Below, one piece after another: positions 1-32,466 of a stretch of DNA of 38,642 bases. The notes beneath the pieces are model-generated. The model saw nothing but the letters and a program-made list of their open reading frames with translations. It had not been told where the DNA came from and searched no databases. The position numbers were made by a program, and so were the translations under genes. Source of the DNA: a virus; the UHGV virus genome UHGV-0115960. One strand, 5' to 3'. The stretch's first letter is position 1. Each line of letters opens with the position of its first letter.

Positions 1-49
1 TGACGGGTAAAAAGTGGATAAAATAATTTTACCCACCGGATTTTTACCC
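1..49. promoter_or_regulatory. Repeat cluster upstream of int: GGGTAAAAA (about 5-13) and inverted copies TTTTACCC (about 27-34) and TTTTTACCC (about 41-49); candidate Int/AlpA binding sites or int promoter region
   Basis: Motif copies read directly; matching direct copies sit at the window 3' end (38587-38607). Confidence 0.5.
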
Positions 50-1207
50 ATGCTCACCGTTAAGCAGATTGAAGCAGCAAAGCCGAAAGAAAAACCATAC
101 CGCCTTCTCGATGGTAATGGCCTGTACCTTTATGTCCCTGTATCCGGGAAAAAGGTATGGCAGCTTCGCTACAAGATTGACGGTAAGGAAAAAATACTGA
201 CCGTAGGAAAATATCCGCTAATGACTTTGCAGGAGGCAAGAGATAAAGCATGGACCGCGAGGAAAGACATCTCGGTTGGCATCGATCCGGTAAAAGCGAA
301 AAAGGCTTCGTCTAACAACAATTCCTTTAGTGCGATTTACAAGGAATGGTACGAGCACAAGAAGCAAGTCTGGTCAGTAGGCTATGCAAACGAACTTGCC
401 AAAATGTTTGACGACGACATTTTACCCATCATCGGCGGCCTTGAAATTCAGGATATTGAGCCGATGCAACTGCTGGAAGTAATCCGCAGATTTGAAGATC
501 GCGGTGCAATGGAGCGAGCCAACAAAGCCCGCAGAAGATGCGGAGAGGTTTTCCGTTACGCTATTGTCACCGGAAGGGCTAAATATAACCCGGCACCTGA
601 CCTTGCAGACGCCATGAAAGGATACCGCAAGAAGAACTTCCCGTTTCTTCCTGCAGACCAGATCCATGCATTCAACAAAGCACTGGCAACATTTTCAGGA
701 AGTATCGTATCGCTCATTGCGACCAAAGTCTTACGCTACACAGCCCTAAGAACAAAAGAGCTTCGCTCCATGCAATGGAAGAACGTCGATTTTGAAAACA
801 GGATTATCACCATCGACGCCAATGTGATGAAGGGACGCAAGATTCATGTGGTTCCGATGTCAGACCAGGTGGTTGAACTTCTCACTACGCTAAGCTCAAT
901 CACCAAACCAGTCTCAGAGTTTGTTTTTGCCGGGCGCAACGATAAGAAGAAGCCAATCTGCGAGAACGCGGTATTACTTGTGATCAAACAAATCGGCTAT
1001 GAAGGTCTGGAAAGCGGTCACGGATTCAGGCATGAATTCAGCACGATTATGAACGAGCACGAATGGCCTGCTGACGCTATTGAAGTGCAACTGGCACATG
1101 CCAACGGCGGATCTGTGCGCGGGATTTACAACCATGCTCAGTATCTCGATAAGCGCAGAGAAATGATGCAGTGGTGGGCTGACTGGCTTGATGAAAAGGC
1201 GGAGTGA
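50..1207 (+). CDS. int: Tyrosine integrase, P4/CP4-57 type (arm-binding N-terminus plus catalytic R..HxxR..Y)
   Basis: N-terminus LTVKQIEAAKPKEKPYRLLDGNGLYLYV typical of P4-type integrases; catalytic LRTKELRSMQW, HGFRHEFST, RGIYNHAQYLDKRR. ORF track starts at a GTG at 14; ATG at 50 fits family N-termini better. Confidence 0.9.
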   Translation: MLTVKQIEAAKPKEKPYRLLDGNGLYLYVPVSGKKVWQLRYKIDGKEKILTVGKYPLMTLQEARDKAWTARKDISVGIDPVKAKKASSNNNSFSAIYKEWYEHKKQVWSVGYANELAKMFDDDILPIIGGLEIQDIEPMQLLEVIRRFEDRGAMERANKARRRCGEVFRYAIVTGRAKYNPAPDLADAMKGYRKKNFPFLPADQIHAFNKALATFSGSIVSLIATKVLRYTALRTKELRSMQWKNVDFENRIITIDANVMKGRKIHVVPMSDQVVELLTTLSSITKPVSEFVFAGRNDKKKPICENAVLLVIKQIGYEGLESGHGFRHEFSTIMNEHEWPADAIEVQLAHANGGSVRGIYNHAQYLDKRREMMQWWADWLDEKAE

Positions 1208-1412
1208 CAAAACTTGTATTCGTTTTACTTATTATCAAGCCAGAAGATAAGTCATAATGATCTGCACTCTTTTTCTACACTTTGCTTCTAATTATTTAGA
1301 AATGAATCTATTGTATTCTTTCACATTTACTATTAATCAACTATCATATATCATGCAAAAACATATATTACATTTTTTGCTTTACTTACAGATACTTAAG
1401 GAATAAGTTAGT

Positions 1413-2522
1413 ATGAGCGCTAGAAGGTATAGAGCAAATCTCGATTCCCAAAGTGGATCTTTTATTAGAGGCTGGTGTTGCAGTACAGATGCTACAGCTG
1501 CCAGCGTCACAGTTTTAATCAACGATGTTGCTGTAGCAATACTTCCCGCATATCAAGAGCGCCTTGATTTAAAAAAGCACAACATATGCTCTAAGGGGGG
1601 CGGTTTCGAAGCTGACATTTCCAGCTTTATAACACATGGTGAAAATACAATCAAAATTGTAGACCCTGACGGAATGATAATACCTAACGGCCAATTCACC
1701 ATCACAAGCAGGAAATGGATACAAGGAGAATCTGAGCATTTGTTTGATTCTTCACGCAAAAAAATTGGTATATACGGCAATAGAGATATTGCAACCAATA
1801 TGAAATATGGATTTGTTCTTCCACAATTAATACATTGTCTTAATCTTTCTATTTCTGATGGAATGGATGGAGATGAAGATTGCAATATTTGGTTTGATAT
1901 TCCATCAGGAAAAAAACCTGAGAACGTTAAAGGACTAATAAACAAAAACCTGAACGATATTCAAAAATCATCCATTGACCTACATCACAGAAAGGTATTT
2001 GGAAGAGGGGTTTGCGTAGATAAGAGTGAGATTATACCTGATCGGCTATATGTTTTAAAATCAGACGAAAATGCAGCACATGATGGTAAGGTTATTAAAG
2101 GAGAAGAAGCTCTATCTGGAGAATTTAAAGGTAGTGTAATACAAAACCTTATTGATAATAGGCTTAATGAGAATGAAGTGCTTGATATTCGCGTTCCTGT
2201 AATAGGAGGAAGCATTCCTTTTGCATACCTAAAAGTTCGTCCTATCTCTATTCGGTTCTCTAACCAGAACTCTCGCTGCAGCATAGTAATGGTTGATACT
2301 GTTTTCTCTAAAAAAGAGGTATCGCAAATAATTGAGTTTGCAAGACTTAATAACATTGACTATGCAGAGCTTGATATTTTAAGGGATGCAAATTCAAAGG
2401 ATATATGGATAGTTGATGTGAACAACACTCCAGCTGGACCGCCGAATGGTTTGCACAAAATAGAGAAGAACTTGGCTATCAGAGAGATGTCGTTGCTTTT
2501 CTATAAAAAATTTATAGCTTAA
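1413..2522 (+). CDS. Accessory (moron) protein, 369 aa, C-terminal ATP-grasp-like motif; at the int-tailspike lysogenic-conversion position
   Basis: AT-rich gene with AT-rich upstream region 1208-1412; ATG with AAGGAA upstream; motif AELDILRDANSKDIWIVDVNNTPAG resembles the ATP-grasp C-terminal signature (RimK-like); no similarity to gtr or oac recognised. Confidence 0.55.
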   Translation: MSARRYRANLDSQSGSFIRGWCCSTDATAASVTVLINDVAVAILPAYQERLDLKKHNICSKGGGFEADISSFITHGENTIKIVDPDGMIIPNGQFTITSRKWIQGESEHLFDSSRKKIGIYGNRDIATNMKYGFVLPQLIHCLNLSISDGMDGDEDCNIWFDIPSGKKPENVKGLINKNLNDIQKSSIDLHHRKVFGRGVCVDKSEIIPDRLYVLKSDENAAHDGKVIKGEEALSGEFKGSVIQNLIDNRLNENEVLDIRVPVIGGSIPFAYLKVRPISIRFSNQNSRCSIVMVDTVFSKKEVSQIIEFARLNNIDYAELDILRDANSKDIWIVDVNNTPAGPPNGLHKIEKNLAIREMSLLFYKKFIA

Positions 2523-2523
2523 A

Positions 2524-2558
2524 AAACAACCACCTCGCAAGAGGTGGTTATTTATAAC
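2524..2558. terminator. Bidirectional rho-independent terminator between the convergent 369-aa gene and tailspike
   Basis: Hairpin ACCACCTCgcaaGAGGTGGT flanked by A-run on one side and TATTTAT on the other. Confidence 0.75.
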
Positions 2559-2617: not shown

Positions 2618-4891
2618 TCATTTTTCTAACTCTGAAATACGAGACTCCAATTCTTCTAATCTTAACAACAAACGATCAAAATTCCTTCGCTGAAGTTTAG
2701 CTTCCAGTGCAAAAGCCTCCTCATAACGTATTCCATACTTAGAACCTGATTTTCTTTGTGGGATAATAACTTCATCGTAAGCCTGATAGCCAGGTATAAG
2801 TTCTCCATTTTCACTAATTCTGTCAGGTGCGGCATCGTGATGCTGGATGACCTCTTCCTGATCACCCCATTCGTCATGGCATGCAAATCCGAACTTAAAT
2901 GCATCAATTCCATGACGTTCAAATGCCTCAATAGCTCTCTGGGCCACAACACCAAAGTGCCATCTAGCTTTTTCACCTTTTTCTTCAACACTTTCCAAAA
3001 ATTTATACTGACACCAATTTACTTCAGACCAAGCATCAAGCATGGCATCTGAGATATCTATAGGTTTTGTTTTGTATGTTTCATCCGATGTAACTATGAA
3101 AGCGGTTTGGGTAAATCCGCCAGACCACGCAGATGCTGAATCTCCACACAAATATTTGTTTGTGGCTGACGGTTTTATAGTCTTAGTAACTGTTTCTTTG
3201 CAGGTAATCTCAGCAACGGCATCATTAGCAACACCATCCTCCCCACCAATAAAGCGAATTACTCCGCTTGGAATATTTGTGTTTAAACCGGTATGAGCGC
3301 GTATCTGACGTACACCGGAAGAGCCAAGCCTTGCTAGTTTTATATCACTAGTAAGGAAAGTGTTTGTATCTGAATCCATAACCCAATATCTGGTATTGGT
3401 GCCACTATCAATAATGTCATTATTTAACTGCACCCCGATTCTCTGATTACCATATACTTGATTGTTAATAGCGCCATTTGAAATTACCACTCCTCGCGTC
3501 ATTCTGTTAATTACGGGGTTTGCAATTGTATTGTTAGAAGCAGAACGAGTTCCAGTTGCATTTTGTCTTAATCTAGTGTGCGTAGCATCTTTTGTGAACC
3601 CTGTTAAAAGCACTTCATTAGAAGACAAAACATTATAATCAGAGCAAATATCAAACCCAATATATGGAGTACCAGAATCACCATCACGGTTAAAAACAAT
3701 GCAGAAGTTATTGGCAATCTTGCAATGATTGCTACCTAATCCAGCGCCCTCACCAAGCTCAACAGCAGAAATAGATGTATTTATATGGTTCCCAAGGATG
3801 AAAATCATATTCCCACCTGTATCGTGAGAGACGATACCTCGTTGACCTGCGATGATGTGGTTAAATGCTACCGTAACCCCCTCTGAACTGCTAGTTACAT
3901 CCATAAATTGAATAAAATCACTAGCGCAACCGTTCGTGAAATTGATATCCCTAGACTGGTTTGTCACCCTGATACAGCAGTTTGTTGGCATGTCATCAAG
4001 TCCGCTCATTGAGCAGTGATCCATAAATACCTGGCTTGCTTTATCTAGGTGGACGCAACAGTCCCATCCGAACATGCCAGTTTCATCATTCGCAAACAGG
4101 ACATCAGTTAGTTTTAATTGTTCGCCGTATTTTGCTGTATGTGTTCCGGTGAACATCAATGCTGTAGCATCTCGATCTCCTCTCGTTCGAAATGATGTGT
4201 TAATAATGCGCATTGCCTTCCTGGTTCCAGAGATAGATGAATTATCTACAATCATTCCAAACCCTGAATCAAATATTATTCCAGTATTACCTTGTGAAAG
4301 ACCAAATATGTCGGAAGTAAACGCAGTAAGCACTATATTTTGGGAGCATTTATATAGCCGGGATAACTTTACGCTTACACCCATTGTTTTTGCTGTCTCG
4401 AAGGCGTCAATAAGTGCTTGGGTATCTGATGATGATATTATATTAGTGGCACCATACATTTCTGGTGATACGTATGGCATTTCATTGTATAAATTAGATT
4501 TCCCTATTCCTACTAATGATGCGCCATGGTTACCTGCTAGTTCACTTCGCAGTTGATCAGGGTCATACTTCAGTATATTTGGAAAATAGAACTGCTGCGT
4601 ACCATACGCATCATAAACAGCCATAGAATGGCCTTGCACGGTTACGAATTTGGCAATCTGTCCGTTATATACCGGATATCCAGCAGCATTAATGATGATT
4701 GGTTGCGAAACAGGAACGTGAGAGCCGTCTTCGTTCTCTATATAAACCTGAATCTGGTTTTCAGGATTTACCGGGTCCGTGTCAATTTTACCGATATAAA
4801 TTTTGCCATTAGCTACAGCTTTAAAAGAACGCGCCATAGTGAAGAGTTGCGAAGGCATCGATACGATCACATTGGCTGTAATGTCTGTCAT
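2618..4891 (-). CDS. Tailspike protein: P22 gp9-like N-terminal head-binding domain, divergent central receptor-binding domain, C-terminal peptidase S74-like intramolecular chaperone
   Basis: N-terminus [13 protein letters not shown]...[38 protein letters not shown] closely matches recalled P22 tailspike; C-terminus [20 protein letters not shown]...RWHFGVVAQ resembles the autoproteolytic chaperone motif of endosialidase-type fibers; terminal coiled coil. Confidence 0.9.
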
Positions 4892-19413: not shown

Positions 19414-19519
19414 AATGTTTCGTAATTGCGTCAGATCATTAACCATAGTTATTGTGTAGCTGCTTTGTGTCGTTGGGGTGAACGACGAAAAAGCGAACAA
19501 CATAATTAATGAGGTGACT

Positions 19520-20050
19520 ATGGAAGTCGAAAAAATGCTGGTCAAGGACCGGAAGTGTGGCTCTTGCTCAGTTTGCTGTGTTTCTTTGGCAATAGATGAG
19601 CCCGAATTGAAAAAAAAGCATGCGGTACCGTGTACCTATCTCAGGCCTCAGGGTGGTTGCTCGATCTATGCTGATCGACCGTCATTGTGCAAAACATGGC
19701 ACTGCGGATGGCGGATGATGCCTTTCATGGGGCCTGCGTTAAGACCAGATCGGTCCAATCTCCTAGTGCGCTTCACGGGAGAATGTTGGATTTTCGGTGA
19801 TGCTGACGACCAAAGGGAATCTGCATTAATGAATAATGATACTTTAAACGCAATGAGCGCTCTGGTCTCGCGTAATATGAAAGTTTCAGTATCAGTTCCA
19901 ACTAAGCCGGGTTATTGCGACGCTGAACATGTCATCAATGATGATATTATGGAGGCGGTAAAAGAACGGTCTTTGTCAAAAGTTAAAGAAATAATTTGGA
20001 CAGTAATTTGCCGGTGCAAAGTCTCCGCGACCAACCCGCGAAAGCAATAA
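19520..20050 (+). CDS. YkgJ-family cysteine-cluster protein (putative metal-binding), antisense to late operon
   Basis: Motif CGSCSVCC plus further Cys (C...C...C..HC) typical of the CxxCxxCC family; ATG at 19520 with GAGGTG upstream (track start 19478 is further upstream). Confidence 0.55.
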   Translation: MEVEKMLVKDRKCGSCSVCCVSLAIDEPELKKKHAVPCTYLRPQGGCSIYADRPSLCKTWHCGWRMMPFMGPALRPDRSNLLVRFTGECWIFGDADDQRESALMNNDTLNAMSALVSRNMKVSVSVPTKPGYCDAEHVINDDIMEAVKERSLSKVKEIIWTVICRCKVSATNPRKQ

Positions 20051-20629: not shown

Positions 20630-21115
20630 TTATTTCAGTTCGTTACCAGGCATTTCTTTTAGCTCTTTCAAATGACAACGATTGAGACTAAACCACTCCC
20701 CGTGCGACCTATAGTTGTAATATTTTTGGTGCAATTTGGTTTCAAGCTCTCTATCGGCCGGAATCTTTGCAATTAGATTTAGCTTCCCACCACTCATGCG
20801 AGATATCTCTGAAATCCGTTTATTAACCCTGCGACTAAACCCTATTTTTGTTAGCCCACTATCTTCAGCATGCAGAACGTACACATATGATTTTTGCGAA
20901 GCACTGGGTGCGACTTTGTTGTAATTAATCATGTCAAACATGAAGCCTTGCTTTAGCAAAGTTTCAAAAAAGATAGAATTAACACACCCATTCCTTCTCA
21001 GCTCTGCACTTAGCTTGTCAATTTCCTCTATGATGTCGCCAGACCCCTTTCCACTTATAAGAAAATCTTGGTACATGCGACCAATTCTTGAGGTAATTTC
21101 AACAAAGTTATTCAT
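20630..21115 (-). CDS. T5orf172 / GIY-YIG-like domain protein (161 aa)
   Basis: C-terminal SYVYVLHAEDSGLTKIGFSRRVNKRISEI...ELETKLHQKYYNYRSHGEWFSL matches the T5orf172 signature; ATG with AAGGTAA upstream; AT-rich. Confidence 0.6.
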   Translation of the reverse strand: MNNFVEITSRIGRMYQDFLISGKGSGDIIEEIDKLSAELRRNGCVNSIFFETLLKQGFMFDMINYNKVAPSASQKSYVYVLHAEDSGLTKIGFSRRVNKRISEISRMSGGKLNLIAKIPADRELETKLHQKYYNYRSHGEWFSLNRCHLKELKEMPGNELK

Positions 21116-25349: not shown

Positions 25350-26768
25350 ATGAAATATTTCTCAACTGGTTTTTATGTTTCAAACTCCACATCTCTAGCT
25401 GAGATCTTTAATGAATGTTTTTCTTGGGTAAACGACTCACCACATACAACTTTTATTCCAGCACAATTAGTATGTGATTATAAAAGCGAGGAGTACTTCA
25501 TAGAGTCTAAAAATGAAAGAATTGATATAATAACTTATAAAAACAAAGATACTAGTTTAGGCTGTTTTAGGTATTCGAAAATATCTGAGCCACACAAATG
25601 GATAACAGATATTTCAATTAATAAAAATCTCAAAACTGATACCATGTGGATTCAGGTGGAATCTAGCGTTGTAAGCCAAGATGCAGCTTATCTAGCCCCG
25701 CAACCTAAGAAACCATTAGTTGTTATGAGATTGATTGATAAATTTCCTGGTGGTCTTGATGATATTTTCAAGGTGTCAGTCGAACCTCATTCCTTAGATG
25801 ATACTGATGAACATTTAAATATAGCAGCTAAAGTTATAAATGGTGAAACTGACAACAGACTACCAATAATATACGTTAGCTCCAAGTATTTTTTTAATGA
25901 ACATGCTCACAATATCATCCCAGAACGCCTTGCAAGAAAGGTATGCGGATTAGCACATGTATTAATTGAGCCTAGCAATAGACTATTTTCTATTAAGCTA
26001 AAAAATGAGACAAATGCTAAAAATGCCTATGCTGGTGCTGTTGGTATCTATTGGCCACGGGGTCAAAATATCAGTTTTTATCGCCGTGGTGAGAAAACCG
26101 CAAAAGAATTTGAAGATGAGTTATTTGATGATGTTGTAAGAGCTACGACTACAATGGCTCCTGTCTCAGATAGTGGATGGAGTGAGATACAAACCAGAAA
26201 AACGAAAGACTCTATTAACTCACTCAAAGAAAGAGGAGAATACACACGCGAACTGATGGCGCTTTACGAAGCCGATAATGTTGCGAAAGATGACCAAATA
26301 GAAGATCTTAAGCATAAGATCTCCTCTTTAGAGCACAGAGTACGCACTCTTCAATCACAAGCTTCAGCCCAAGGAAGCATTGCGCTTAATGCTGGTGAAG
26401 AGACTGACTTTTTTGATGGAGAAATCAAAAATATAATTATTGACGCACTAAAAACTGCCATAAAAAATAAAAATGAATTTGGTAGAAGCTACCATATCTT
26501 ATCATCCCTAATTGCCAATAATGAATACAATAAAGAAACCGAGAGTCGCCGCCAATTACTTAAAAGGACTTTAACAGGTTACAGAAGCATGGATAGCGCA
26601 ACACAAAGAAATTTAAAGGACTTAGGTTTCAGTGCGTCAAGCGATGGAAAACACTGGAAGTTAACATATAATGAAGACCCTCGATATTCCTATATTTTAC
26701 CTAAAACAGGAAGTGACCACAGAGGTTCTTTAAATGCTATCTCGGATATAGCAAACATTATTTTCTAA
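25350..26768 (+). CDS. Uncharacterised 472-aa protein, AT-rich moron antisense to the early-right operon
   Basis: Long ORF with strongly AT-biased codons, own upstream AT-rich region and downstream hairpin; central coiled-coil segment; no recognised family. Confidence 0.8.
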   Translation: MKYFSTGFYVSNSTSLAEIFNECFSWVNDSPHTTFIPAQLVCDYKSEEYFIESKNERIDIITYKNKDTSLGCFRYSKISEPHKWITDISINKNLKTDTMWIQVESSVVSQDAAYLAPQPKKPLVVMRLIDKFPGGLDDIFKVSVEPHSLDDTDEHLNIAAKVINGETDNRLPIIYVSSKYFFNEHAHNIIPERLARKVCGLAHVLIEPSNRLFSIKLKNETNAKNAYAGAVGIYWPRGQNISFYRRGEKTAKEFEDELFDDVVRATTTMAPVSDSGWSEIQTRKTKDSINSLKERGEYTRELMALYEADNVAKDDQIEDLKHKISSLEHRVRTLQSQASAQGSIALNAGEETDFFDGEIKNIIIDALKTAIKNKNEFGRSYHILSSLIANNEYNKETESRRQLLKRTLTGYRSMDSATQRNLKDLGFSASSDGKHWKLTYNEDPRYSYILPKTGSDHRGSLNAISDIANIIF

Positions 26769-29976: not shown

Positions 29977-30080
29977 AACAACCTCCGTGGTTAATTTGAA
30001 TCAAGATTAAAACTATGGTTGTTTTTAGTCAACAACCATTTTCGTTTGATGGAATAAAACCTTGGTTGTACATTTGGACT
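29977..30080. promoter_or_regulatory. cI/cro divergent promoter-operator region (oR/pR/pRM equivalent)
   Basis: Perfect palindrome ATGGTTGTT-n7-AACAACCAT at about 30015-30039 plus additional AACAACC/GGTTGT half-sites. Confidence 0.65.
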
Positions 30081-30770
30081 ATGAAAACAACACTCTCAGA
30101 AAGACTTAAAGAAGCCAGATTAGCGCGAGGCCTTACACAAAAGGCGCTTGGGGATTTGGTCGGGGTTAGCCAAGCTGCTATTCAGAAAATCGAAACAGGG
30201 AAAGCTAACCAAACAACTAAAATCGTGGAGATCGCGAACGCTTTGGGTGTGCGCGCAGAATGGTTATCTTCTGGCGTTGGAAATATGTCAGACAGTACAG
30301 TGCAACCAATACAATCCACTGTCAGCCATTCCAAATACTTCAAGATTGACGTTCTTGATATAGAAGTGAGTGCCGGGCCGGGAGTCATCAACCGTGAGTT
30401 TGTAGAAGTCCTACGCTCGGTTGAGTACTCGTTTGACGATGCTCGTCACATGTTCGATGGCAGGAAGGCAGAAAATATCCGCATCATTAACGTACGCGGT
30501 GACAGCATGTCAGGAACGATCGAACCAGGTGATCTTTTGTTCGTTGATATCACTGTTAAATCTTTCGACGGTGATGGTATCTATGCGTTTCTGTACGACG
30601 ACACAGCCCATGTAAAGCGCCTGCAAATGATGAAGGATAAGCTGCTGGTTATCTCTGATAACAAGAGCTACTCACCGTGGGACCCGATCGAGAAAGACGA
30701 GATGAACCGGGTGTTTATCTTCGGTAAGGTTATTGGGAGCATGCCGCAGACATATAGGAAGCATGGTTAA
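30081..30770 (+). CDS. cI: CI-type prophage repressor (HTH plus LexA/S24-like autocleavage domain)
   Basis: HTH LTQKALGDLVGVSQAAIQKIE; C-terminal GDSMSGTIEPGDLLFVD...VKRL S24 peptidase motifs; track ORF start at 30015 lies inside operator, ATG 30081 preferred. Confidence 0.9.
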   Translation: MKTTLSERLKEARLARGLTQKALGDLVGVSQAAIQKIETGKANQTTKIVEIANALGVRAEWLSSGVGNMSDSTVQPIQSTVSHSKYFKIDVLDIEVSAGPGVINREFVEVLRSVEYSFDDARHMFDGRKAENIRIINVRGDSMSGTIEPGDLLFVDITVKSFDGDGIYAFLYDDTAHVKRLQMMKDKLLVISDNKSYSPWDPIEKDEMNRVFIFGKVIGSMPQTYRKHG

Positions 30771-30889: not shown

Positions 30890-31642
30890 GTGATGGAGTG
30901 CGTAGCGAGCAGCAATAGTGCAATACCTAATGTCGTTGAGGTAATACGTCGCATCAATGAAGGTTCCACTCAGCCATTTCTTTGCAAATGTGATGATGGG
31001 CAGTTGTATGTTTTGAAGTCAAAACCATCAATGCCCCCGAAAAATCTCTTAGCTGAGTTCATTTCGGCGTGTTTGGCTAATGATATCGGCCTTCCTTTAC
31101 CTGACTTTAAAATCGTATTTGTGCCAGAGGAACTTATAGAGTACTCACCTGATCTGCAGCAACAAATTTGTACAGGATATGCCTTTGCTTCATTGTTCAT
31201 TGACGGTGCAATAGCGTTAACGTTTACGCAGTCAAGAAACGAAACGATCATCCCAGTCGAACAGCAAAAATTAATCTATGTTTTTGATAAATGGATATTA
31301 AATGCAGACAGAACGCTTACTGACAAAGGTGGAAACGTTAACATCCTTTATGACATCAGTAACGATAAGTATTATCTGATTGACCATAATCTCTCATTTG
31401 ATCAGAATGCTGGACCTGAAGATTTTTCTGTGCACGTGTACGGCCCTGGTAACCGCAAATGGCAATATGATTTAGTGGATCGCGTAGAGTACCGCCAGAG
31501 GGTCGTTAACAGTTTACACAAGCTTCCTGCTATCCTTGACGAAATTCCAGAAGAGTGGATAGTAGATGAGGAGTTTTTACCTTTTGTCTGCACTACGCTA
31601 GACAAAGGTGATTGTGATGAATTTTGGAGCGCAATAGAATGA
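30890..31642 (+). CDS. Protein-kinase-like fold protein (HipA/aminoglycoside-phosphotransferase-like catalytic motifs), 250 aa, downstream of cI
   Basis: Candidate catalytic loop TDKGGNVNIL and downstream LIDHNLSFD about 20 residues later; candidate ATP-binding Lys in LYVLKSK; lower GC than backbone. Confidence 0.55.
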   Translation: MMECVASSNSAIPNVVEVIRRINEGSTQPFLCKCDDGQLYVLKSKPSMPPKNLLAEFISACLANDIGLPLPDFKIVFVPEELIEYSPDLQQQICTGYAFASLFIDGAIALTFTQSRNETIIPVEQQKLIYVFDKWILNADRTLTDKGGNVNILYDISNDKYYLIDHNLSFDQNAGPEDFSVHVYGPGNRKWQYDLVDRVEYRQRVVNSLHKLPAILDEIPEEWIVDEEFLPFVCTTLDKGDCDEFWSAIE

Positions 31643-32466
31643 CAACTCCATGCCTATATAGCATCGTTCGCTATGCGCCTTATGCGGAGACTGAAGAGTT
31701 CGCAAACATAGGCGTACTTCTGTGCGCGCCAAAAGAAAATTACTTTGATTTCCAGCTCACAAAGCGAAATGACTCTCGTGTAAAGAATTTTTTCCATGAT
31801 GATTGTATTTTCCCTGTAGCAAAAGACTCAATACAAAGAGAACTACAGTTCGCAAAAATGCATGCGACCCAGATTGTTGGACATCAACAACTTGCACAAT
31901 TCTTCAGATATTTTACAAACAAAAAAGAATCAATTTTTCAGTTCAGTTCTACGAGAGTGATTCTCAGCGAAAACCCAAAAGAAGAGCTGGCCCGCATTTA
32001 CAATAAATATGTAAACCACTCTGACTACACAAAAGAGCGCCGTGAAGATGTTCTAGCCAGAGAGCTAAAACGAAGTATCGATAGAATAGATGGATTGAAG
32101 AACCTCTTCAAACAAGCAACCATTGATGGGTATTTCGCAAAGTTCTCAATGCCATTGGTCGCCAAGAAGCATGACAGGATCCAATGTGCCATCAAACCTC
32201 TGGCATTCACTCAAGCTGAACCAGGAAAAATGATGGAGCATAGTGATACTTGGGTGATGAGAATAACTCGAGCAGCAGAAGAAAACCTGCTTTCACTTGA
32301 TGACATTTTATTCACAATTGAAACTCCTGAATCACCAAACTCAGGCCAAAGCAAAGTTATTGACATCATAAAGAGAACTATGGATGCTAAGAAAATAAAT
32401 CATATACCTGCATCCAACCACAAAGAAACTATTGATTTTGCAAAAAAAATACTTCCCCAAGTTTAA
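31639..32466 (+). CDS. DUF3037-like protein (275 aa), translationally coupled to the kinase-like gene
   Basis: N-terminal YSIVRYAPYAETEEFANIGVLL resembles DUF3037 signature (from memory); ATGA start/stop overlap with upstream gene. Confidence 0.6.
   Translation: MTTPCLYSIVRYAPYAETEEFANIGVLLCAPKENYFDFQLTKRNDSRVKNFFHDDCIFPVAKDSIQRELQFAKMHATQIVGHQQLAQFFRYFTNKKESIFQFSSTRVILSENPKEELARIYNKYVNHSDYTKERREDVLARELKRSIDRIDGLKNLFKQATIDGYFAKFSMPLVAKKHDRIQCAIKPLAFTQAEPGKMMEHSDTWVMRITRAAEENLLSLDDILFTIETPESPNSGQSKVIDIIKRTMDAKKINHIPASNHKETIDFAKKILPQV

Follow-up and report, generated by a model that had tools for sequence, protein, structure and literature searches.

Here we describe a 369-aa gene, lodged between the integrase and tailspike genes of an E. 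coli P22-like prophage, that is probably a new way for a prophage to change the surface sugar of its host. Our reading, to which we assign a probability of roughly 0.5, is that it encodes a lysogenic-conversion enzyme that amidates the carboxylate of a uronic acid in a surface polysaccharide, masking the receptor of the tailspike to which the gene is linked. The window, that is, the whole 38,642-nt stretch of DNA analysed, had earlier been read from its letters as holding an ATP-grasp-like enzyme at this position; beyond that sequence-only reading, we add an N-terminal Ig-like domain, a cassette structure and a link to uronic acids. The features on which the argument turns are the following.

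14..1207, + strand: tyrosine integrase (Pfam Phage_integrase 2.5e-39, Phage_int_M, Arm-DNA-bind_3)
1319..1412, + strand: conserved 5' region of the cassette (promoter scan, conservation, BLASTN)
1413..2522, + strand: ATP-grasp ligase gene, 369 aa, product predicted to be cytoplasmic
1413..1712, + strand: Ig/FN3-like beta-sandwich, N-terminal domain, aa 1-100, restricted to long-form family members
1755..2519, + strand: ATP-grasp catalytic region, aa ~115-369 (60-sequence alignment, superposition, HMM and hhalign)
2529..2550, no strand assigned: stem-loop terminator between the convergent genes (RNA fold; flanks read from the sequence)
2618..4891, - strand: tailspike, 757 aa, whole gene (Head_binding 1.1e-66 and Peptidase_S74)
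2618..4550, - strand: tailspike receptor-binding domain and C-terminal Peptidase_S74 intramolecular chaperone, aa ~114-757, the cassette's second half
4551..4891, - strand: P22-type head-binding (virion adaptor) domain, tailspike aa 1-113 (Pfam Head_binding)

The gene begins with an ATG and, stop codon included, occupies 1413..2522 within the span 1208..2558, with the integrase gene upstream on the same strand and the tailspike gene downstream in convergent orientation. Its GC content is 37.0%, where the window as a whole has 47.0% and the integrase gene 47.5%, in agreement with the earlier description of a single AT-rich gene in this slot. The independent promoter-like region proposed at the same time corresponds to the conserved block at 1319..1412, where promoter activity is predicted from TTCACA-16-TATCAT at 1320..1347 (10/12 positions matching; -35 at 1320-1325, -10 at 1342-1347); an AGGA ribosome-binding site lies ~10 nt 5' of the ATG. 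Taken on its own, the promoter-like match is not above chance, because the scan found 5 such sites and shuffles gave an expected 5.5 +/- 2.2. The block is nevertheless kept in three diverged copies of the gene (that of the window, a Leclercia copy and a lambdoid copy) while the sequence farther upstream is unrelated, and BLASTN homology with two copies, L001 and L086, begins exactly at 1319.

Downstream, the hairpin AACCACCUC-GCAA-GAGGUGGUU at 2529..2550 folds at -16.1 kcal/mol (z = -5.1; 0/200 shuffles fold as well); it was missing from the output of the consensus scan. An A6 stretch lies just before it, reading as a T6 run after the tailspike gene on the minus strand, and it is followed on the plus strand by a weaker AUUUAU; the hairpin is therefore plausibly bidirectional and stronger for the tailspike strand. 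Of the bidirectional terminator claimed before, the strong hairpin is thus retained, with termination in both directions plausible and unequal between strands. The conserved promoter-like block, this terminator, the low GC content and the strand opposite the tailspike are all features of a moron, and the convergent orientation, own promoter-like element and intervening terminator place the gene outside the late operon.

The encoded protein is predicted to be cytoplasmic. As had been remarked from the sequence, no membrane segment is evident in it: its top Kyte-Doolittle 19-residue window reaches 1.66 at aa 26-46, a stretch that the predicted structure resolves with high confidence into two beta-strands, and no signal peptide was found at its polar N-terminus. 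All the named database entries checked for it read "hypothetical"; Pfam, PHROGs and PADLOC, from which its family is likewise absent, and phmmer against the PDB gave no match. The structure model (pLDDT 94.1, pTM 0.86), used as query in two structural searches, returned only ATP-grasp enzymes among the top matches of both, with 229 PDB matches at E <= 1e-3 in Foldseek, headed by PsnB, ArgX, RimK and Ddl; the nearest folds include the protein and peptide ligases RimK, PsnB, CdnC and TTLL. The three-domain ATP-grasp fold is recognizable in the model, ~225 residues of which superpose on ArgX and RimK at an identity of 12-16%.

The predicted active site is conserved across the family. In an alignment of 60 homologues, N177, K185, K216, D258, R260, R281, D321, D335, P340 and G342 are invariant, and E319 and N337 nearly so. 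The Mg2+-site motifs are ELDILRD at 2367..2387 and IWIVDVNNTPAG at 2403..2438. In HMM and hhalign alignments with RimK, which span residues 244-341 only, D321, D335 and N337 pair with the RimK Mg2+ ligands D248, E260 and N262, D258-I-R260 pairs with DIR, and R281-F-S-N with F-R-S-N, giving both the acidic-acidic-Asn triad for Mg2+/ATP and a conserved Arg at the acyl-phosphate site. K185 and K216, candidates for the two lysines that contact the ATP phosphates, may occupy the positions of RimK K100 and K141. The C-terminal motif that the sequence-only reading had called ATP-grasp-like therefore aligns with the RimK Mg2+ ligands and contains the invariant D321, D335, P340 and G342.

Similarity to named families is distant. 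The protein scores 15.4 bits with the RimK family (TIGR00768 / PF08443; cut-off 143.4), 17.9 bits with the MptN model (cut-off 350) and 15.0 bits with PRK10446 (cut-off 331); the best of these sub-threshold matches, MptN and RimK, are carboxylate-amine ligases that add amino acids. RimK is matched weakly by only 8/60 family members, YheCD is also weak among members, and a family profile run against the PDB found only RimK, at E about 1.8. Of the checks suggested earlier, structure prediction thus matched ATP-grasp enzymes and the HMM search gave sub-threshold scores; we regard the protein as a genuine cytoplasmic ATP-grasp ligase.

What such a ligase might act on is suggested by its relatives. 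Full-length homologues (41-47% identity) are found either at the ends of prophages or within polysaccharide clusters, and in five locus types the homologue is directly beside Ugd (UDP-glucose 6-dehydrogenase): one in Pseudomonas fulva (L003-5), a species in which GCA_040805115.1 carries the Ugd-linked homologue, and those represented by L091/92, L101 (where a 4-bp overlap is seen), L104 and L105. The Ugd-linked loci also hold RgpF/GT2 giant glycosyltransferases, rmlBDAC and GT92, and one further homologue locus has an ABC-2 permease. A 385-aa neighbour in L091 was considered as an ATP-grasp paralogue and proved not to be one. The association with uronic-acid supply and a polymerising glycosyltransferase belongs to the chromosomal homologues and not to the phage copy; neither Ugd nor a glycosyltransferase was found beside phage copies of the gene. 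Among short-form members, a scan of 126 neighbouring ORFs found glycosyltransferases commonest, yet in heterogeneous contexts, and plasmids yielded two distant short-form matches only. One relative (P0069) is fused to a WecB/TagA-type glycosyltransferase. The Ig-like beta-sandwich of the N-terminal 100 aa is also found fused to glycosyltransferases. This domain was taken through an exhaustive phmmer search; its fold is a generic one, occurring in proteases as well.

These neighbourhoods also bear on whether a conversion enzyme at this locus might use some other chemistry, such as kinase-type phosphorylation of a sugar hydroxyl, ligation of an amino acid through its carboxylate onto an amino sugar, or action on the nucleotide sugar UDP-GlcA in place of the lipid-linked glycan. 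We consider this unlikely: the nearest sequence models are the amino-acid-adding ligases MptN and RimK, the recurrence of Ugd as a neighbour suggests a carboxylate, and, were UDP-GlcA the substrate, host glycosyltransferases would have to accept an altered donor.

The second line of evidence for receptor masking by amidation comes from the tailspike. Its N-terminus is 87-93% identical to those of HK620, CUS-3 and N7, whereas aa 114-757 share 77% identity with a tail fibre (781 aa) encoded by a lambdoid prophage of the siphovirus type, the homology to this lambdoid copy ending at the head-binding domain; the receptor-binding part is also 82% identical to a Leclercia P22-like tailspike and 60% identical to the fibre of L106. 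From these comparisons, the head-binding domain is assigned to the phage backbone, outside the cassette. The receptor-binding domain has a GC content of 40%, and the central domain of the tailspike, aa ~190-500, is essentially unmatched in 50,697 phage records, the sole overlap being a Stutzerimonas phage (32% identity, aa 1-331). The unit shared by the P22-like podovirus and lambdoid siphovirus-type prophages runs from 1319 to ~4513 and comprises the promoter-like element, the gene, the terminator and the receptor-binding domain. Gene and receptor-binding domain diverge together across copies (88/82, 87/77 and 83/60% identity, respectively), and in each of the 16 enterobacterial loci retrieved a homologue of the gene lies next to a homologue of the receptor-binding-domain gene. 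The comparison of this locus across related prophages, as had been suggested, thus uncovered a cassette shared and co-diverging between virion types, and, judged by sequence comparison, the gene, promoter-like element and receptor-binding domain form one mobile cassette.

Relatives of the gene also lie at the ends of other prophages. In a Daeguia prophage, a relative of the gene comes directly after the integrase, and in the L090 prophage a relative lies beside an RgpF-GT2 gene with a tailspike gene two genes further. The L090 tailspike was considered as part of the same cassette and rejected as unrelated to that of the window; L090 therefore supports a link between enzyme and phage, not a shared cassette. 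No such tail fibre was found near homologues in the Pseudomonas-type glycan clusters or in the Daeguia prophage.

Joint travel with a receptor-binding domain would also be explained if the tailspike itself were what the enzyme modifies or matures, perhaps through post-translational ligation to its receptor-binding domain or S74 chaperone; the strict co-inheritance across the 16 enterobacterial loci would fit such a role, and the ATP-grasp enzymes RimK and the TTLLs do modify proteins. We nevertheless judge it very improbable, given that the gene faces the tailspike gene from the opposite strand, carries a conserved promoter-like element of its own and is separated from that gene by a terminator, and that the homologues in Pseudomonas-type clusters and Daeguia do without such a fibre nearby.

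The sequence-only reading had left the choice between a conversion and a defence function. Prophage ends and positions next to tail fibres are common sites of defence morons, and an anti-phage or other fitness role on a cytoplasmic, non-glycan target (through RimK-like ligation of peptides or proteins, or the synthesis of a small molecule) would accord with the protein and peptide ligases among the nearest folds, the heterogeneous contexts of the short forms, and the defence-like matches carried by the same prophage. We favour a putative conversion function, and consider defence distinctly less probable even than conversion by another chemistry, because the gene co-transfers and co-diverges with a receptor-binding domain across virion types, for which a defence gene would have no reason, because chromosomal relatives adjoin Ugd within glycan clusters in five locus types, and because PADLOC-DB 2.0 returned 0 families at E <= 1.

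The prophage itself belongs to E. coli. The host DNA that flanks it matches E. coli chromosomes at 100% identity, its integrase end adjoins tRNA-Arg argW, and E. coli assemblies L095-L100 have the same arrangement, after yfdC and a tRNA; the argW region beside yfdC is the site of Sf6 and of the K-12 CPS-53 element with its gtr genes. Although the flank is that of E. coli, the gene had no match in 5,426 complete E. coli genomes (megablast, sensitive blastn), and the prophage must therefore be rare; megablast and tblastn searches of 50,697 phage records with the gene were likewise without a match. Over 100 E. coli assemblies encode exactly this protein, among them GCA_017722375.1, GCA_026539485.1, GCA_025609375.1, GCA_041221355.1 and GCA_041878675.1. 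Elsewhere, the prophage also carries a HipA_2 kinase / PDC-M66A match and a weak HEC-07 match, both defence-like.

By position, the closest known system is CUS-3, a P22-like prophage of E. coli K1 with a single conversion gene, neuO, between integrase and tailspike, a layout that bears out the earlier view of this slot as the conversion locus of P22-like phages. CUS-3 is ~95% identical in nucleotide sequence over the aligning 56% of a 20-kb structural-gene query, and both tailspikes carry the S74 chaperone. NeuO is a soluble enzyme acting on a capsule assembled in the cytoplasm; it differs from the predicted ATP-grasp ligase in being an acetyl-CoA-dependent polysialic acid O-acetyltransferase regulated by heptanucleotide repeats, and no tract of that type was noticed on reading the sequence of the gene. 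As integral membrane proteins, Gtr and Oac use lipid-linked glucose or acetyl donors and do their work at, or across, the inner membrane, whereas the protein described here is predicted to be soluble, cytoplasmic and ATP-dependent. The genes for them, gtrABC of P22 and oac of Sf6, occupy the same slot with the same presumed purpose, namely O-antigen receptor masking, as the Kapi1 preprint sets out. From the alpha-L-glutamate ligases RimK, MptN and LysX-ArgX, the protein is separated by its low scores (15-18 bits against cut-offs of 143-350; identity 12-16%), its extra N-terminal Ig-like domain and its genomic context.

In function, the nearest parallel is the C-terminal ATP-grasp domain of Cj1438 in Campylobacter jejuni HS:2, which uses ATP to amidate the C6 carboxylate of GlcA in the capsule (PMC11800379). 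The putative function proposed here shares with it an ATP-grasp fold and cytoplasmic action on a surface polysaccharide with Ugd-supplied GlcA, and the chromosomal relatives likewise adjoin Ugd and multi-domain GT2 enzymes. The Cj1438 domain belongs to the TupA-like family PF14305, and the present protein to another sequence family, since none of 60 members matches PF14305 at E <= 1. Whereas the Cj1438 domain is fused to GT2 and supplied with ethanolamine-P or serinol-P by dedicated neighbouring enzymes, the protein of the window is stand-alone and phage-borne, with an N-terminal Ig-like domain and no amine-synthesis genes alongside. We thus regard it as a putative functional analogue of the Cj1438 domain and a positional one of NeuO. 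In Vibrio, cells become phage-resistant once an ATP-grasp amidoligase gene is deleted from a capsule locus (PMC11382117). Our literature search found no paper joining ATP-grasp, prophage and tailspike, nor one linking ATP-grasp with amide-linked uronic acid in O-antigens.

Under the amidation reading, the gene would be expressed in the lysogen from its own predicted promoter, on the strand opposite the late operon. With ATP and Mg2+, the enzyme would activate a sugar carboxylate of the surface polysaccharide, most likely C6 of a glucuronic or another uronic acid residue, to an acyl-phosphate, and would then form an amide between that carboxylate and an amine common in the cytoplasm, most probably an amino acid. 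The reaction would take place on the cytoplasmic face, where the glycan may be a lipid-linked repeat unit or a polymer of an ABC-transporter pathway, and binding of the glycan, or of a partner glycosyltransferase, may be assisted by the Ig-like domain at the N-terminus. The neutralised, bulkier residue would alter the epitope bound and cleaved by the co-inherited tailspike, so that the lysogen would be poorly infected by this phage or by any other that shares its receptor-binding domain, and would change serotype.

A fuller, joint reading, which we hold more tentatively and at somewhat less than even odds, is that this would be the first phage-encoded seroconversion in which an acidic sugar is amidated at the expense of ATP, a chemistry that lysogenic conversion is not known to use, through an undescribed ATP-grasp family; that the long form (Ig-like and ATP-grasp) would also be the as yet unassigned enzyme that puts amino-acid amides on uronic acids of proteobacterial ABC-transporter-type O and K polysaccharides; and that gene and receptor-binding domain are a self-contained 'bind it / mask it' cassette hopping between podovirus- and siphovirus-type prophages. 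The close linkage of gene and receptor-binding domain is a clear case in which a receptor-binding module and a gene presumed to mask the receptor are transferred as a unit between virion types, and gene neighbourhood could serve to match depolymerases to the glycans they target.

Many O and K antigens bear amino acids joined to uronic acids by amide bonds, among them E. coli K40, K54, O91 and O143 and the O-antigens of Proteus and Providencia; to our knowledge, the enzymes behind these amides are mostly unassigned, and the present family offers a testable candidate for the linkage. In enteric prophages, seroconversion is known to us only through membrane glucosyltransferases, acetyltransferases or polymerase switches. 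Conversion by a soluble ATP-grasp ligase would, if true, add a new chemical class, in which an anionic sugar becomes a neutral or zwitterionic amide, and would matter for serotyping, for phage therapy and the host range of phages, and for recognition by complement or antibodies.

A P22-like (Lederbergvirus) prophage, to all appearances complete, makes up the window. Its virion genes share ~95% identity with those of the E. coli phages 720R6, CUS-3, and Kapi1, and it carries the gene in question in the integrase-tailspike slot where the sequence-only reading had placed it:

14..1207, + strand: tyrosine integrase, left end of the window
1320..1347, + strand: -35/-10-like pair upstream of the ORF
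1413..2522, + strand: the ORF in question, 369 aa
2529..2550: stem-loop between the convergent ORF and tailspike (fold -16.1 kcal/mol, z = -5.1)
2618..4891, - strand: tailspike, 757 aa, convergent with the ORF; head-binding domain of P22 type, Peptidase_S74 chaperone at the C-terminus

The ORF has a GC content of 37%, compared with 47% for the window. No membrane segment or signal peptide was found in its product, and the sole hydrophobic stretch forms two confident beta-strands in the predicted structure. Taken alone, the -35/-10-like pair is no better than chance given the AT-rich DNA, yet it falls within a block conserved across three diverged copies of the gene, with unrelated sequence farther upstream. 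Given this conserved block, the stem-loop, the low GC and the lack of a membrane segment, the earlier description of an AT-rich gene for a soluble protein, with its own promoter-like region and a terminator shared with the tailspike, is confirmed in all parts.

Sequence searches of the protein against Pfam, PHROGs, PADLOC, and PDB gave no match, and the matches returned by NCBIfam, over aa 225-353 and to glutamate ligases of the MptN and RimK types, were all below threshold. HMM and hhalign alignments pair D258-I-R260 with the D-I-R of RimK, R281-F-S-N with its F-R-S-N, and D321, D335, and N337 with D248, E260, and N262, which are Mg2+/ATP ligands; the C-terminal motif from which an ATP-grasp enzyme had been proposed holds these last three residues. 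Every aligned residue is invariant or nearly invariant among family members, as are K185 and K216. The protein is a genuine ATP-grasp enzyme, and its family has not been described before: Pfam has no model for it, a few of 60 members weakly match RimK, YheCD, or Ins134_P3_kin, none of the 60 matches the TupA-like model (PF14305), and every named database entry for the window protein reads "hypothetical protein [Escherichia coli]". RimK, LysX, and ArgX are structurally nearest, although the protein scores far below their family cut-offs, and fold similarity to kinase-type ATP-grasp enzymes is nearly as high.

Close copies of the gene occur beside related receptor-binding proteins in prophages of two virion types.

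Identity of cassette copies to the window
L001 (Leclercia adecarboxylata), P22-like: ATP-grasp 88%; tailspike 82%, full length
L086-L089, lambdoid, siphovirus-type (GpJ, tape measure): ATP-grasp 87%; fibre 77% over aa 114-757
L106-L108, lambdoid, siphovirus-type: ATP-grasp 83%; fibre 60%

The 781-aa fibre of L086, convergent with its ATP-grasp gene, differs from the window tailspike solely in the N-terminal virion adaptor. DNA homology of the other copies starts precisely at the promoter-like element (1319), and in a lambdoid copy stops near 4513, where the adaptor meets the receptor-binding domain. It follows that one mobile unit, promoter - ATP-grasp - terminator - receptor-binding domain plus chaperone, passes between virion types, and its two genes co-diverge. 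We regard the ATP-grasp fold and the cassette as solid. The co-divergence, along with an empty PADLOC result, makes defence or another cytoplasmic target an unlikely role. Tailspike maturation is less probable still, as the two genes are convergent and separately terminated, and some relatives have no tail fibre nearby. The central receptor-binding region of the tailspike has essentially no relative among deposited phages, so its glycan target is not readable by homology. Two small conserved genes precede the cassette directly, on the opposite strand, in the Leclercia and lambdoid copies (L001:7241..7797, L086:7168..7796, L106:6478..7037). They encode 79 aa and 105-129 aa, and the longer product weakly matches Peptidase_S24; in the window the integrase occupies that place and the pair is missing.

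More distant full-length relatives (41-47% identity) reside in two settings, polysaccharide gene clusters and other prophages. In the former, UDP-glucose 6-dehydrogenase is the immediate neighbour of the homologue in Pseudomonas fulva (loci L003-5), adjoins it in L091/92, L104, and L105, and overlaps its reading frame by 4 bp in L101. These loci also hold rmlBDAC, GT92, methyltransferases, and 800-1100-aa RgpF/GT2 multi-domain glycosyltransferases, and an ABC-2 permease occurs with sulfate-activation genes in locus L103. Both RgpF-type enzymes and ABC-2 permeases are hallmarks of pathways in which the whole polymer is assembled in the cytoplasm, within reach of a soluble enzyme. Among prophages, the unrelated L090 (9032..16529) encodes, in order, a methyltransferase, the homologue (44% identity), an 869-aa RgpF+GT2 protein, a 138-aa ORF, and a pectate-lyase-like tailspike, a series that may form a larger module for glycan remodelling carried by phages. 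In the alphaproteobacterium Daeguia caeni (L006:8446..11254), ERF - YqaJ - HTH_17 - integrase is directly followed by a full-length homologue, an independent capture at a prophage end, while in L093 the homologue lies amid IS elements and an integrase fragment, with an RgpF-GT2 gene ~8 kb away.

The short form of the family, which lacks the N-terminal Ig/FN3-like domain, was found at 309 loci in species-representative genomes. Its neighbours are heterogeneous; glycosyltransferases are the commonest family (about 10/126), a share we judge several-fold above our expectation for a typical genome. One short-form relative, P0069, is fused to a WecB/TagA/CpsF-type glycosyltransferase (PF03808), and others to SAM methyltransferase or metallo-beta-lactamase-fold domains (P0094, P0101/P0102/P0104). 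When 1.84 billion representative proteins were searched exhaustively with phmmer, the N-terminal domain itself had only 59 relatives, often as tandem repeats. Among ten scanned for fusion partners, it is joined to a GT4 glycosyltransferase in P0123 and GT2+GT4 in P0153, to a GT2-type model (P0143) and a sulfotransferase (P0124) below the Pfam cut-off, and to two secreted proteases, fusions loosely compatible with glycan or partner binding.

In the assembly collection, the exact protein turns up in at least 104 blocks, and the same 757-aa tailspike adjoins it in 6/6 places among the matches listed. The gene was found in none of 5,426 complete E. coli genomes, even by sensitive blastn, and the protein was absent from 50,697 phage records searched at the protein level. 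The host flank matches E. coli at 100% identity, and the prophage sits after fadL - mlaA - yfdC and a tRNA, which we take to be the argW site used by Sf6 and the K-12 CPS-53 element; the latter carries gtr genes. Elsewhere in the window, several other genes were noted:

19478..20050, + strand: 190-aa ORF without matches
20630..21115, - strand: 161-aa T5orf172/MUG113 (GIY-YIG-like) protein; like the preceding, opposite-strand ORF, between the packaging genes and the region upstream of Q
25350..26768, + strand: 472-aa ORF, opposite to the surrounding nin/Q region; weak PADLOC match to candidate system HEC-07 (E 1e-9)
30015..30770, + strand: CI-type repressor (HTH_3 + Peptidase_S24), directly upstream of the kinase
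30890..31642, + strand: HipA_2 HipA-like kinase (Pfam E 1e-76; PADLOC candidate PDC-M66A, E 6e-15)
31624..32466, + strand: 280-aa ORF that overlaps, then follows, the kinase

The 472-aa ORF, which has no Pfam match, may be a second moron, and the repressor-adjacent kinase and 280-aa ORF resemble a module for prophage defence or abortive infection within the immunity region.

Together, the observations on the ATP-grasp gene indicate a lysogenic-conversion function, in which the soluble enzyme would act in the cytoplasm to amidate a carboxylate on a uronic acid of a surface polysaccharide, and phages would have recruited it to mask the receptor of the linked tailspike. Candidate E. coli polymers would be the O-antigen unit, K-antigen, ECA, and colanic acid. 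Four observations converge on this reading: the enzyme is soluble and its nearest models are amino-acid-adding carboxylate-amine ligases; its relatives repeatedly adjoin the enzyme making UDP-glucuronic acid; the genes reside within glycan clusters or at the ends of prophages; and the phage gene is strictly linked to a tailspike receptor-binding domain. Neither the phage copy nor its chromosomal homologues are accompanied by a gene for making a special amine, so the simplest guess for the nucleophile is a common amino acid. A different glycan-modifying chemistry, or action on UDP-GlcA itself, is a possible but distinctly less probable alternative. Precedents support parts of the amidation and conversion reading. 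CUS-3, a close backbone relative, has the acetyltransferase gene neuO in exactly the same slot. The NeuO enzyme is likewise soluble, and the capsule that it modifies is built in the cytoplasm. Furthermore, the C-terminal ATP-grasp domain of Campylobacter jejuni Cj1438 amidates capsule GlcA using ATP (PMC11800379), and in Vibrio alginolyticus, cells from which an ATP-grasp amidoligase gene of a capsule locus was deleted become resistant to a capsule-dependent phage (PMC11382117).

By analogy, the protein is predicted to work like the Cj1438 domain, although it falls outside that domain's Pfam family (0/60 members); it shares its placement with NeuO, Oac, and Gtr, but is a soluble protein of a different enzyme class. 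Lysogenic conversion at the integrase-tailspike slot would thus be of a known kind, whereas the enzyme family and its predicted chemistry would be new, and the amidation and conversion hypothesis is directly testable.
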